From the IMG/VR virus record IMGVR_UViG_3300029702_000002: a DNA stretch of 64,000 nucleotides. One strand, 5' to 3'. This DNA is from a virus. Taxonomy: Duplodnaviria; Heunggongvirae; Uroviricota; Caudoviricetes. The number at the start of each line of letters is the position of its first letter. Position 1 is the first letter of the stretch. Below, one piece after another: positions 8,323 through 11,762 of the stretch. The position numbers and the translations under genes are program-made. The notes under the pieces are model-generated. The model made no database searches and was not told where the DNA came from. It saw nothing but the letters and a program-made list of their open reading frames with translations.

Positions 8323-9558
8323 TTAACCAAATATTTTTTGAACAACTTCACGAGCCGCTTGTGCAGAAGCTGAAGGGAGTTTGTTAATGAAAGAACGCTC
8401 AATACCTGTCACAAAGTCGCCTCGCATCATTCCAATCTTGGCCGACAACAAAAGTTCACGAGGGCCAATTGGCTGACTGATAAGGTGTTCTTCGTATCCA
8501 TCGCGAACGATACCGGCAAACTTAACCATCTTTTCTGCGTATTCATCCACGATACCGGCATTTATCAACATGTTGATCTCTGCCTCTTTGCTCATGTATT
8601 TCACATTCGAAACGATGCCAAAACGCGAAAAGTTCGCGGCGTTCTGGATGTTTGTACCCTGGTACAAGCCGGTTTCATCACCAGATCCGTTCGTGTTGCC
8701 AGTGCCAATGAAAGCAAACCGTTCATGCGGAGTAATGCGACGCCATTCTGGAGTCGCCTCTTTGATGACCAACGCTTCACCTTCCAGCACTGGCTGATAC
8801 ACGCCAAGAATCTGTGGAAACGCAAAGTCGTATTCATCCGCGAGGTAAACCCAGCCATGCTTCATTGCGAGCGCAAGCAAGCCAGGCTCGAAATACGTAG
8901 AGCCATCACGCGCCAGAATTTGTCCCGTAACATGAGCCTCTTCCATTGATGCTGTATGTTGGGCACGGATTAACGGACGATTGAGCAAAGCACATAGTTG
9001 TGTAGGCAATGAAGATTTGCCTGTTCCTGCATGACCCCACAAATAGCCAGGTATGCCAAGTTCAAGCATCATGAAAATGTCTTTGATCAGTTCGAAGTCG
9101 CCATATACGTATCCCTTCTTCACTTCTGGAACGAACTCTGGAAACGGCGTATTGACGTTGACGCTAACCATGAGCGGCGTCCCACGTTTTGTTCCGAGTT
9201 CTTTCACCGTTACATTTAGCAGTTCGTGAGCTGCGACCAGATCTGTCTTGTACTCAACTGTGCCTGTGTAGCCTGGGCTACTGGTCACGCCAGATGATTT
9301 GGCCATTTCGCTTTTTTGCTCGGCACGTTTAGCTTGAATTGCATCAAGTGCCTTTTTCGATAGCGTTGGCTCATCTGGAAACTGTGTTGTGTACATTTTC
9401 AGTACGGTGTCAGGATCGGCATCTTTTACTGACTCAGGAATGCCCTCGCAATTACCATTGGCTACATGGGACTTAAAATAGTGAAATGATTTTCCGCACC
9501 ACTTGCAAACAAGGTAATCAGAAGGATTTTTTTCATTTTGCAGTGCAGTAGTAGTCAT
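8323..9558 (-). CDS. AAA+ ATPase, MoxR/CobS-like, with N-terminal zinc-finger-like motif
   Basis: 411 aa; Walker A GHAGTGKSS; Walker B-like VYLADEYD; N-terminal CKWCGKSFHYFKSHVANGNCEG. Confidence 0.7.
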   Translation of the reverse strand: MTTTALQNEKNPSDYLVCKWCGKSFHYFKSHVANGNCEGIPESVKDADPDTVLKMYTTQFPDEPTLSKKALDAIQAKRAEQKSEMAKSSGVTSSPGYTGTVEYKTDLVAAHELLNVTVKELGTKRGTPLMVSVNVNTPFPEFVPEVKKGYVYGDFELIKDIFMMLELGIPGYLWGHAGTGKSSLPTQLCALLNRPLIRAQHTASMEEAHVTGQILARDGSTYFEPGLLALAMKHGWVYLADEYDFAFPQILGVYQPVLEGEALVIKEATPEWRRITPHERFAFIGTGNTNGSGDETGLYQGTNIQNAANFSRFGIVSNVKYMSKEAEINMLINAGIVDEYAEKMVKFAGIVRDGYEEHLISQPIGPRELLLSAKIGMMRGDFVTGIERSFINKLPSASAQAAREVVQKIFG

Positions 9559-9653
9559 GCGTTTTTCCTTTGTTTTCTAATGAGCGTTCAACTTCTTATA
9601 TAAATATATCATTATCTATCGTAAGTGGTTACTTATCGTTAAGGCTGTTTTGT

Positions 9654-11762
9654 TCACTTTAAAATGATACGAGATAGTTCAGTAACTACAGATGAACCAA
9701 GACTATCAACGCTCGTTACCAGGGCATGATTTGAGTAAAATCTCTCCGGTGCGTCAGTCATGATGCCAATTGCCATCAAATCAATATCAGTCTGCGTTTC
9801 AATTTGCTTCGCAACTGAACGCAAATGAGCGTCAAAACCTCTCCCAACAGCCCACGGCGCGCCATCACTCAGAACAAGCATGATCTTCCTGTCCTCCATG
9901 CGACCGGAAAATAACGATGCAAGGCTGGCTATGCTTTCACCATCCACGTTATTAAGAAGTGGGAATGTGTAGCCTACGCACCCCATACGTGAGCGAACTT
10001 CGCGAGAATTTACCTTTTCATTCCAATTTTTGATGATAGGTAGCATTAAAGATTCAAAGCGAGAGAACTCATACTTGACAGCCTTAAGTTCTCCTGCCGC
10101 CATATGACTACCAAATGTAGTGAAGCCGGTGATAATGTTGGGAACATTTATTCGATCAAGTGCATCGGCGATGGTATATGCACTTGCAAGAGCTAGTTTT
10201 ATCGTTTCGCCACTCATTGAACCCGATAAATCAATCACTTGTTGAACACAGGCGTTAACGGCTTTAGATTCTTCTTTTTTACGAAACACGCGATCATCAT
10301 TCATTGTTAATCTGTAGATACTTGAACCATGAATGCGCCCCCGACGCTGGCCAGGTATAAACTGAACTCTGTTTCTGCTTGCTATTGCACGTTCCAGGTC
10401 TTTTGCCAGCGTCGACGAAACACCTGACGAAAGGTGCTTTTCAATATATTTGTCGAAGAGTTGGTTGCCTTCAGGAACGATGCGATAACGGCTGATTGGA
10501 TATCCACCTAAATCAATATCGGAGAATGTTTTAATAAGCCGTTTGATATGGGCTTCTGCCTGATCAATCGAGCCGATGAAGTCGTATGAGCGATTGTATG
10601 GCCTGTATTCGCTTTTCGAGCTTTCTGTTAACTCGCTTTTAATCGTTTCGGATAGCGCATCTTCTGTCATGCCTCCGACTTCATCTTCCATGCTATCCAA
10701 CTCCTCTAAAGCCTCTTCCAGACTCATTTTTGACGGAGTTGGAATGTCTGAAGAGCCGTCTTCTGTCGATTTTCTTTTTTCGTGGTCAGTGGTAAATGAT
10801 TCTGACGCCGCGTTATCAGAAGCACCAGAATCTGATACCTCTTTATCATTTTCTGTATCATCGAATATTGTTTCTGATGATTCAGAATTATCTGAATCAT
10901 CACTGTCGTTATTATCATGTTTGTGCTTACTGTGTGATTCTGATATGATAGATTTGTGATTATCTAACGCTGAGGGTGTCTCATGATCTTCGTTGTCTTC
11001 ATTGTTTTCTCCAGAGGCATCCGTCTGGTCAGCGTCTGAAGGATCGGAAGTTTTTCCCGGAGCTGACTCCTTACCTTTGCTTTCACTTTCAGTGTCTTTG
11101 AGGATCTTAGCTATGGTCGCAGCCACCTTTACACAATCCTCGGTGCAAGACATGTTACGCACGGCCACATCGATACCATGTTCTTTTAATAATGAAATTG
11201 GTTTCTCAATGACATGCCAATATTCATCCATGAAATCTACGAACGGTGCTTGGCCATCCCAGGCTCTTACAACCGGACAGAGAAAGAAGTTTAGAAAAAG
11301 CGCGCGCTGATCTTTGCCACAATAAGCAATAGCCTCTGAAGCCTTTGGTTTAAAGACTTTTTCGATTATAAGGCGCTGAGTTGCCATCAGATTACGTCTT
11401 GTTCCGTTAAAGACCTGACCCATTTTTCGCTCGATGAACACGTCTTCTAAGGCATTCCATAGCGACCAGGAAGGAACGCGTCCTTTTTCTCTCATTTTGT
11501 TGGACACACGAATATCGGTAAACAAAATGTGAGCAACCTCATGATCGAGAAATCCGCGCACAGCATTCATCAATGCCGGTGTTGCGTTATCCGGGATTGA
11601 TGGGATGTTTACGAGAATTGGCTCTCCATCATCGTTATAGCGTACATAAGCGTCGTCCCCTCGTTCTGCAACAGGGATGTTTTTACCTGAAAGGAGAGCG
11701 ACTACTCGTTTTACACTGTCACGGAAGTCCTGAACCTCTTTGATGGAACGTTTTTTAGACAT
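9654..11762 (-). CDS. von Willebrand factor A domain protein (CobT-like partner of the AAA+ ATPase)
   Basis: 702 aa; MIDAS-like DLSGSMSGET in the C-terminal third; long acidic Ser/Asp/Glu-rich low-complexity linker in the middle; immediately upstream of the AAA+ gene on the same strand. Confidence 0.7.
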   Translation of the reverse strand: MSKKRSIKEVQDFRDSVKRVVALLSGKNIPVAERGDDAYVRYNDDGEPILVNIPSIPDNATPALMNAVRGFLDHEVAHILFTDIRVSNKMREKGRVPSWSLWNALEDVFIERKMGQVFNGTRRNLMATQRLIIEKVFKPKASEAIAYCGKDQRALFLNFFLCPVVRAWDGQAPFVDFMDEYWHVIEKPISLLKEHGIDVAVRNMSCTEDCVKVAATIAKILKDTESESKGKESAPGKTSDPSDADQTDASGENNEDNEDHETPSALDNHKSIISESHSKHKHDNNDSDDSDNSESSETIFDDTENDKEVSDSGASDNAASESFTTDHEKRKSTEDGSSDIPTPSKMSLEEALEELDSMEDEVGGMTEDALSETIKSELTESSKSEYRPYNRSYDFIGSIDQAEAHIKRLIKTFSDIDLGGYPISRYRIVPEGNQLFDKYIEKHLSSGVSSTLAKDLERAIASRNRVQFIPGQRRGRIHGSSIYRLTMNDDRVFRKKEESKAVNACVQQVIDLSGSMSGETIKLALASAYTIADALDRINVPNIITGFTTFGSHMAAGELKAVKYEFSRFESLMLPIIKNWNEKVNSREVRSRMGCVGYTFPLLNNVDGESIASLASLFSGRMEDRKIMLVLSDGAPWAVGRGFDAHLRSVAKQIETQTDIDLMAIGIMTDAPERFYSNHALVTSVDSLGSSVVTELSRIILK

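Follow-up and report, generated by a model that had tools for sequence, protein, structure and literature searches.

We found that two adjoining minus-strand genes in the 64,000-nucleotide viral stretch IMGVR_UViG_3300029702_000002 (the window, meaning the whole stretch analysed) encode a MoxR-class AAA+ ATPase and a von Willebrand factor A (vWA) protein whose sequences place them in a phage/plasmid branch of the CobS/CobT family. The N-terminal domain of the CobT-like partner is a predicted M48-like zincin with an apparently intact HExxH…E site, a site that canonical CobT has lost. The window is an SSU5-type phage-plasmid, and over bases 8000-12200 it shares 98.8% identity with Escherichia phage Cyrano and 75% with Salmonella phage SSU5. 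As the CobS-like ATPase carries what appears to be a Ros/MucR-type zinc finger and the pair is followed by a phage DnaE (DNA polymerase III alpha subunit) in most related loci, the reading that we tentatively favour, at somewhat less than even chances, is an ATP-driven, DNA-associated AAA+/vWA/peptidase protein remodeller serving phage genome replication.

A first-pass annotation of this DNA had proposed a CobS/MoxR-type AAA+ ATPase with a CobT-like vWA partner bearing a MIDAS (metal ion-dependent adhesion site), an assignment now borne out by matches to AAA_5, CobT, CobT_C and the solved structures 9ujv and 9uka_G. It missed the features that we consider most informative, namely the intact HExxH…E site and the conserved operon with the phage DnaE. 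The two genes are as follows.

9654-11762, minus strand: CobT-like gene, 702 aa (open reading frame, ORF; Pfam CobT and CobT_C; phrog_1576, E 4e-301)
8323-9558, minus strand: CobS-like MoxR-class AAA+ ATPase gene, 411 aa (ORF; AAA_5; phrog_249, E 2e-106; PDB 9ujv)

Because of the strength of these two phrog matches, we take both to be real conserved genes rather than chance ORFs.

An intact zincin site in the CobT-like N-terminal domain

11100-11762, minus strand: N-terminal domain with predicted M48-like zincin fold, aa 1-221
11529-11543, minus strand: HEVAH, aa 74-78, putative motif for zinc binding and catalysis (from the translation and homologue conservation)
11430-11447, minus strand: EDVFIE, aa 106-111, candidate for the third zinc ligand, on the next helix (E106 and E111 invariant across 125 sequences)

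The CobT-like protein matches Pfam CobT (PF06213) over aa 9-294 (E 5e-27). Upon searching its aa 1-225 with phmmer against 1.84 billion cluster representatives, we obtained 1128 clusters at E ≤ 0.001, and from the best 150 of these we assembled a conservation set comprising 124 full-length representatives of 50%-identity clusters and the window protein. Although the N-terminal domains are only 33-45% identical, HE[VI][AG]H is found at approximately residue 70-78 in 123 of the 124 representatives. Across the 125-sequence alignment D73, E75, E106 and E111 are invariant, and H74, H78, N103 and D107 are at least 90% conserved. At the HExxH columns, ten Rhizobiales CobT proteins (the Brucella CobT of PDB 9uka and nine others) read D-S-M-A-L-R/K, and the same ten keep both downstream Glu residues. 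One related locus, L027, reads HEVAR at the motif.

AlphaFold2 modelled aa 1-225 with a predicted local distance difference test score (pLDDT) of 91.7 and a predicted template modelling score of 0.87, as one helix and three strands followed by helices, placing HEVAH on helix 62-81 and E106/E111 on helix 98-117. Sequence and model together present the features of a gluzincin, that is, HExxH on an active-site helix and a Glu on the next helix within a zincin fold. The crystal structure of the N-terminal domain of CobT has been described as M48C-like (10.64898/2026.07.21.739949), and D73 of the CobT-like protein aligns with D80 of CobT, which makes a salt bridge to the small domain of CobS in that structure (10.64898/2026.07.21.739949). 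The simplest reading of an HExxH and a Glu in an M48-like fold would be a peptidase, and the CobT-like protein may accordingly be capable of proteolysis. Cyanophage cobT has been called "mistakenly annotated as a peptidase" (PMC8651126); the intact HExxH suggests that this annotation was not a mistake.

Beyond this set, the Big Fantastic Virus Database (BFVD) shows the architecture of N-terminal domain plus vWA domain also in siphoviruses, podoviruses, Gordonia phages and haloarchaeal tailed viruses, and distant CobT-like proteins keep the site (HECYH in ICP2, DHEAGH in Roseobacter phage CRP-810).

Linker, shaft and vWA domain of the CobT-like protein

10608-11099, minus strand: acidic Asp/Glu/Ser-rich low-complexity linker, aa 222-385 (from composition)
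10254-10385, minus strand: segment aligned with the CobT shaft, aa ~460-503 (aligned to Brucella CobT residues ~373-413)
9660-10289, minus strand: vWA domain, aa 492-701 (Pfam CobT_C, PF11775, E 1.7e-82)
10218-10232, minus strand: MIDAS DLSGS, aa 511-515 (D511, S513 and S515 invariant)

The acidic segment that the first-pass annotation had singled out is really there, at 164 aa and not the approximately 130 given, with 30% Asp plus Glu, 20% Ser, 11% hydrophobic residues and a net charge of -36. As a peculiarity of this protein it did not hold up. Linkers are net negative in all 125 family members compared, with a median length of 200 aa (range 102-341 aa) and a median net charge of -57, so that the window linker is shorter and less acidic than is typical for the family. 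The solved Brucella CobT has one too (87 aa, net charge -34), which is invisible and hence disordered in all CobS-CobT-CobN cryo-electron microscopy maps (10.64898/2026.07.21.739949). Because the relatives and Brucella CobT share it, the linker is conserved in character and not distinctive of the window protein.

C-terminal to the linker, the profile of the CobT-like family matches PDB 9uka_G with an E value of 5.8e-64, in an alignment that takes in the shaft region, where G471, G475, L482 and F493 are conserved. The CobT shaft plugs the pore of the CobS ring (10.64898/2026.07.21.739949), and by analogy aa ~460-503 of the CobT-like protein would serve as a shaft as well.

A probable Ros/MucR-type finger on the CobS-like ATPase

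8326-9138, minus strand: AAA+ module, aa 141-411 (aligned with Brucella CobS residues 38-315)
9013-9036, minus strand: Walker A GHAGTGKS, aa 175-182 (from the translation)
8833-8838, minus strand: Walker B DE, aa 241-242 (from the translation)
9304-9525, minus strand: predicted Ros/MucR-type zinc-finger domain, aa 12-85 (Pfam in homologues, profile against PDB, model)
9448-9507, minus strand: finger ligand block C18..C37 (C18-x2-C21-x9-H31-x5-C37 in the translation)
9268-9303, minus strand: flexible linker between finger and ATPase, aa 86-97 (pLDDT <50; length and sequence vary across homologues)

The CobS-like protein matches Pfam AAA_5 (E 2e-15), and its closest solved structure is CobS (9ujv, E 1.8e-25, over aa 141-411). 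A profile search yielded 120 homologues that are 41-48% identical, and in the alignment of these 121 members the Walker residues are invariant and CbbQ_C is matched by 120. The pore-loop region carries a clade-specific invariant R198-x-Q-H-T…E206-E207-x-H209, with RVNLDSHVSRID at that place in CobS. An AlphaFold2 model of the whole protein, built from the full-length alignment, reached a pLDDT of 85.8 and consists of a confidently folded module at aa 12-85, a disordered tether at aa 86-97 and then the ATPase.

The N-terminal C-x2-C…H…C motif that had been read from the sequence is present, with C18, C21 and H31 invariant in this alignment, and all 120 homologues have C-x2-C-x9-H-x3-6-[H/C]. 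Pfam ROS_MUCR (PF05443) matches 73 of the 121 members (best E 1.3e-6), and the top PDB match of a profile of the N-terminal 56 positions is Ros87 (2jsp, E 3.5e-4), with Cys, Cys, His and His aligned. The window finger, CKWCGKSFHYFKSH, broadly agrees with the published Ros signature C-X2-C-X3-F-X2-L-X2-H (PMC9779718), reading C-X2-C-X3-F-X2-F-X2-H-X5-C where the full Ros/MucR signature is C-X2-C-X3-F-X2-L-X2-H-X3-H-H. In the SSU5-like clade the fourth-ligand His (HLKxxHP elsewhere) is replaced by a 12-residue insert with Cys37, which makes C…C…H…C a plausible ligand set. The second Cys is an Asp in 12 of 52 loci, giving a Cys-Asp-His2 variant known from Mesorhizobium Ml1-3 (PMC9779718).

We classify the module, by these matches, as a clade-conserved prokaryotic C2H2 finger, probably of the Ros/MucR type. 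It shares with Ros87 the C-X2-C-X9-H spacing, the hydrophobic F and L, the T-x-E-E-Y helix that follows and the Cys-to-Asp variant; it differs from Ros/MucR in the Cys that takes the place of the fourth His in the SSU5-like clade, and in being fused to an AAA+ ATPase, where the Ros/MucR finger is joined to an oligomerisation domain. Ros/MucR fingers bind AT-rich DNA, and by analogy the CobS-like finger would bind DNA.

Relation to cobaltochelatase

Profile scores argue that neither protein is a true cobaltochelatase subunit. The CobS equivalog TIGR01650 scored 84.8 bits on the CobS-like protein against a cut-off of 558.55, and the CobT equivalog TIGR01651 scored 73.8 bits on the CobT-like protein, in its C-terminal half only, against a cut-off of 759.05; both values are approximately 1/10 of the NCBIfam cut-offs. 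No CobN was found among the window ORFs of at least 450 aa, the other large ORFs encoding tail fibre, tail-tip, tape-measure and helicase proteins. De novo B12 synthesis in E. coli requires approximately 30 heterologous genes including cobN, cobS and cobT, so that, according to that work and not from a search of the host genome, an E. coli host has neither CobN nor the aerobic corrin substrate pathway (PMC6249242). With equivalog scores this far below cut-off, no CobN in the window and no such pathway in E. coli, the pair is not a chelatase, and a chelatase role is excluded for an E. coli host.

The likeness to CobS-CobT of the Brucella/Pseudomonas type (9ujv, 9uka; 10.64898/2026.07.21.739949) extends over the whole length of the proteins and comprises the MoxR-class AAA+ module, the M48-like N-terminal domain, the acidic disordered linker, the vWA domain with MIDAS and an alignable pore-inserting shaft. 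All features of the CobT superfamily (PF06213 and PF11775) are present in the CobT-like protein, namely N-terminal domain, acidic linker and vWA domain with the MIDAS DxSxS, and the CobS-like protein has the MoxR-class AAA+ fold with Walker A and B, homologous to solved CobS. The catalytically dead N-terminal domain of characterised CobT, however, is not matched, as the window protein reads DHEVAH against DSMALR/K; the HExxH that is intact here is DSMALR in CobT. Compared with CobS, the CobS-like protein adds an N-terminal extension of ~140 aa with the Ros-type finger, lacks the last ~13 CobS residues, and has the pore-loop motif QHTxxxEExH in place of VNLDSHVSRID. As a phage pair it also comes without a CobN partner, and its genes are linked to DnaE.

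These data bear on the proposal that phage CobS and CobT are true auxiliary metabolic genes (PMC8651126, PMC3037004), which would engage the host's CobN and promote the insertion of cobalt into hydrogenobyrinate a,c-diamide, giving a higher cobalamin supply during infection, for example for class II ribonucleotide reductase. The CobS/CobT homology behind this usual annotation is real, and some hosts of related phages, such as Rhizobium, possess CobN. We nevertheless regard the proposal as highly improbable, given the low equivalog scores, the lack of a window CobN and of both CobN and substrate pathway in E. coli (PMC6249242). An intact HExxH and a DNA-type finger would, in addition, be useless for chelation, true CobT having lost its HExxH, and the pair is tightly linked to DnaE and not to metabolic genes. 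Vibrio cholerae, the host of ICP2, is not known to be a de novo B12 producer either, which we also count against it.

In the GenBank record of Cyrano (OV696614.1, 12324-15763, equivalent to window 8323-11762) the two genes are named 'cobalamin synthetase' and 'dimethylbenzimidazole phosphoribosyltransferase'. These names are wrong because the unrelated Salmonella CobS/CobT names were confused with the Pseudomonas-type chelatase names.

A conserved operon with the phage DnaE

11861-12073, minus strand: 70-aa protein, phrog_2627 (opens the presumed operon; confined to the SSU5-like clade)
8117-8320, minus strand: 4-Cys protein, 67 aa, phrog_6337 (N-terminal module of phrog_3616)
4624-8142, minus strand: phage DnaE, 1172 aa (Pfam PHP, DNA_pol3_alpha, finger and HHH_6; last gene of the presumed operon)
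4454-4475, both strands: bidirectional hairpin terminator 3' of DnaE (9-bp stem, 6 GC pairs, T-runs on each strand)

Five minus-strand genes run head to tail in the window, in the order 70-aa ORF, CobT-like, CobS-like, 67-aa 4-Cys ORF and DnaE. The CobT-like and CobS-like genes are separated by a spacer of 95 nt; the 4-Cys ORF begins 2 nt beyond the CobS-like stop and runs 26 nt into DnaE, and the CobS-like gene, the 4-Cys ORF and DnaE are translationally coupled. Upon scanning 4300-14200 for promoters and terminators we obtained counts no higher than shuffle expectation and no promoter assignable to the operon, the hairpin after DnaE being the sole convincing element.

The order is widely conserved. 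Among 55 IMG/VR viral loci with a CobT-like gene, including relatives down to 25-40% identity, the CobS-like gene lies directly downstream in 50, and 48 of those have DnaE no more than 3 kb further on (median gap 1.2 kb). Among isolated phages, the cassette is carried by SSU5-like phages, Rhizobium RHEph10-like phages and Pseudomonas phage nickie; the CobT-like gene occurs in Stenotrophomonas phages as well, and the match in Xanthomonas JGB6 adjoins DNA polymerase III alpha. A scan of GTDB found the cassette in alpha-, beta-, gamma- and deltaproteobacterial assemblies and in one cyanobacterium, with DnaE downstream in most bacterial-assembly loci. Many of the bacterial contigs are plasmid-like, and their sizes of ~100-118 kb (L065-L095; Yersinia pestis, Xenorhabdus, Morganella, Massilia, Paracoccus, Phyllobacterium, Magnetospirillum and others) suggest that SSU5-like phage-plasmid relatives occur well outside the Enterobacteriaceae. 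Desulfosarcina has a rearranged CobS-CobT-DnaE order and retains the finger, and two loci without DnaE (Oligoflexales and Planctomycetaceae) are also without the finger. In the podovirus ICP2 the pair stands immediately upstream of primase, helicase and PolA. A decayed chromosomal copy of the cassette was seen in Halomonas sulfidaeris (L080).

Gene position also bears on a second explanation, a virion-assembly chaperone with a processing protease that folds or assembles and trims structural proteins. This has been suggested for T4-like jumbo phages, and the MoxR-vWA system of the archaeal virus ATV offers an analogy. The same architecture was proposed to have this role in the jumbo phages (PMC7824862), and MoxR-vWA pairs are generally maturation chaperones. 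Set against this, the pairs of SSU5-like phages, ICP2, CRP-810 and Gordonia phages lie among early or replication genes outside the structural module (in CRP-810 and Gordonia phage Woes, among early/non-structural genes), the tail and tape-measure genes of the window are ~20 kb away from the pair, and the ATPase has a DNA-binding-type finger. Moreover, our tblastn search with the CobT-like protein and a distant N-terminal domain against 50,697 phage records reached no T4-like cyanophage or jumbo-phage versions, so that sequence did not place the jumbo-phage proteins in the same clade. We consider an assembly role improbable.

The 67-aa ORF between the CobS-like gene and DnaE has four cysteines (C5, C19, C22 and C28; spacing C-x13-C-x2-C-x5-C), and most related loci conserve a module [GA]C[FY]G-x8-12-C-x2-C-x5-C immediately upstream of DnaE. 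In other lineages the gap between CobS and DnaE mostly holds a phrog_3616 protein of ~160-240 aa, to whose N-terminal module the window ORF corresponds. Pfam searches with the ORF and its longer homologues returned no family, and the only assignment was phrog_3616, which has no assigned function. The CxxCx5C part has the spacing of WhiB-like Fe-S proteins, but the ORF gives no Pfam match.

Such a protein invites a third explanation, in which the pair would be a chaperone for metal-cofactor insertion, similar to NorQ-NorD, CbbQ-CbbO and CoxD-E, that loads the 4-Cys protein or DnaE, the HExxH being a metal-handling site and not a protease. Maturation of metalloenzymes is the task of many MoxR-vWA pairs, the PDB matches include NorQ, NorD and CbbQ, CobST itself powers metal insertion, and the 4-Cys gene is conserved and translationally coupled to both neighbours. 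Metal binding by the 4-Cys protein is hypothetical, however; HExxH and Glu in an M48-like fold would most simply denote a peptidase, and the DNA-type finger would be left unexplained. Loading of the PHP domain of DnaE is further weakened, as this domain lacks the N-terminal HxH metal ligands (it reads MVRTDFS). Metal insertion thus strikes us as very unlikely.

Two further observations concern DnaE itself. Its C-terminal ~220 aa (aa ~950-1172; 4627-5295) do not form a recognisable polymerase III alpha C-terminus and match only the uracil-DNA-glycosylase superfamily, weakly (E 0.0024, short of the Pfam cut-off). In nine loci (L008-L010, L012, L014, L027, L037, L040 and L070) DnaE is split into ORFs of ~790 and ~390 aa lying ~0.06-0.9 kb apart, which suggests an intein, an intron or homing-endonuclease insertion, or a frameshift.

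Around the operon, a helix-turn-helix repressor-like gene (12325-12711, plus strand; XRE-like, weak Pfam matches) is divergent from it, and its end is overlapped by a tyrosine-recombinase gene of the phage integrase family (12706-13809, minus strand), surprising in a plasmid-maintained element, where it may act as a dimer-resolution recombinase. Three tRNA genes (Ser-tga, Thr-tgt and Asn-gtt) lie at 16331-16783 on the minus strand. Downstream of DnaE, Cyrano has a HicA/HicB toxin-antitoxin pair (6940-7788) at a place where the window has a different ORF of 326 aa (3468-4448, plus strand), a variable spot between otherwise ~98% identical elements.

A tentative model and its rivals

We suggest that the CobS-like protein would form a MoxR-type hexamer, in which a Ros/MucR-type finger on a flexible tether in each subunit targets the ring to DNA. 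The CobT-like protein would be the adaptor, plugging the pore of the ring with its vWA shaft in the manner of the solved Brucella CobS-CobT complex, and the MIDAS face of the vWA domain would bind a client protein. Held close by the polyanionic disordered linker, the N-terminal zincin would then cleave or clamp this client, which would take the place that CobN has in the chelatase. Because of the invariant operon with the phage DnaE and the 4-Cys protein, the likeliest client would be either a host protein bound to DNA or part of the phage replisome. Ring and shaft are proposed by homology with that complex. The operon context (CobT-CobS-4Cys-DnaE) points to replication as the stage. A stronger version, in which the pair is a two-polypeptide, DNA-tethered AAA+ protease whose vWA plug hands a DNA-bound client to an active M48-like peptidase, clearing or maturing proteins so that the phage DnaE replisome can form, and CobS-CobT is its derived, catalytically dead descendant, seems to us unlikely.

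A fourth explanation is host takeover or anti-defence, in which the DNA-tethered ring and peptidase would remove or cut proteins of the host nucleoid or of its defences (H-NS-type silencers, for instance, or restriction or abortive-infection factors bound to DNA), with no tie to replication. PADLOC defence models gave nothing meaningful, the one match being to DrmE (E 7e-4), largely within the acidic low-complexity segment. We hold this anti-silencing or anti-defence role to be doubtful, and rank it, like CobN hijack, virion assembly and metal insertion, below the replication-linked remodeller. An ImmA-like repressor protease was set aside, since the pair is also found in lytic phages, ICP2 among them.

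Several observations weigh against a replication-linked remodeller with peptidase activity. The nickie-like lineage of Pseudomonas has lost HExxH (DSEISK or GEIAK; L062 7974-10058, L045, L049 and P0269) and retains the vWA domain with its MIDAS, the zinc finger of the CobS-like protein and the gene order CobT-CobS-4Cys-DnaE, which indicates that peptidase chemistry is dispensable in at least one lineage. The window CobS-like protein itself scores no ROS_MUCR match, which is obtained with homologues and the family profile only. It stops at the position matching residue 315 of the 328 in Brucella CobS and so lacks the C-terminal helix a10 of the patch that docks the N-terminal domain of CobT in the solved complex, and the docking geometry of the pair may differ from that complex as a result. 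CRP-810 and Gordonia phages (e.g., Woes) carry the pair with no polymerase annotated within ~7 kb. The search patterns with which loci were fetched are biased to HExxH-bearing relatives, and the synteny may partly reflect inheritance rather than function, because most loci come from one broad lineage of ~100-120-kb siphovirus/phage-plasmid elements. In the searchable literature we found no experimental data on any phage CobS/CobT-like pair.

Relation to known systems and significance

The pair has long been known in phages, from ICP2 in 2011 (PMC3037004) and cyanophages, where cobS is a core gene (PMC3037559), to archaeal viruses (PMC8651126), and a metallopeptidase domain fused to the vWA partner was noted in jumbo phages (PMC7824862). 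Its description as functionally unexplained in the first-pass annotation is right in that no function has been shown experimentally and overstated in that two hypotheses are in print, host CobN hijack (PMC8651126) and a MoxR-vWA-metallopeptidase chaperone for virion assembly (PMC7824862). The nearest described architecture is that of the T4-like (group 2.2) jumbo phages (Iyer et al. 2021, PMC7824862), a MoxR ATPase with a neighbouring vWA protein that has an N-terminal metallopeptidase; the window has the same arrangement, with its MoxR AAA+ gene adjoining a vWA gene with an N-terminal HExxH domain. The two differ in that a virion-assembly role was proposed there, whereas a replication operon and a DNA-type finger are found here, and, as the tblastn search reached no jumbo-phage versions, identity of the two pairs is a matter of architecture only.

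NorQ-NorD, CbbQ-CbbO and RavA-ViaA share with the pair an AAA_5/CbbQ_C ATPase and a vWA-MIDAS partner that inserts into the ring and acts to remodel a client enzyme; the descriptions consulted give them neither an HExxH peptidase domain nor a zinc finger, and their clients are respiratory or carbon-fixation enzymes. FtsH-type AAA+ zinc proteases offer a parallel in mechanism only, in which an AAA+ ring is paired with an HExxH zincin whose substrate is a ring-held client protein. Unlike FtsH, the pair would consist of two polypeptides joined via a vWA plug, its ring is of the MoxR clade with no indication of substrate threading, and its zincin is not homologous to the M41 domain. We did not find in the searchable literature a Ros/MucR finger on the ATPase, the contrast between intact and dead CobT sites, or the CobT-CobS-4Cys-DnaE cassette, and we regard these three features, read from sequence, as refinements of a system whose kind is already known.

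In thousands of records from phages, plasmids and metagenomes such genes bear the label "porphyrin" or "cobalamin biosynthesis", and they are tallied as auxiliary metabolic genes in virome studies. Both the pair and its architecture were already described, and the present support is computational. If a replication-linked remodeller or peptidase is the true function, these metabolic inferences would be wrong for this clade, and a widespread group of phage-plasmids, among them the SSU5/pHCM2-type elements of Salmonella, E. coli, Klebsiella and Yersinia, would have an unstudied core replication accessory. The intact site here, set beside the dead site in true CobT, suggests a hint at the origin of the chelatase adaptor.

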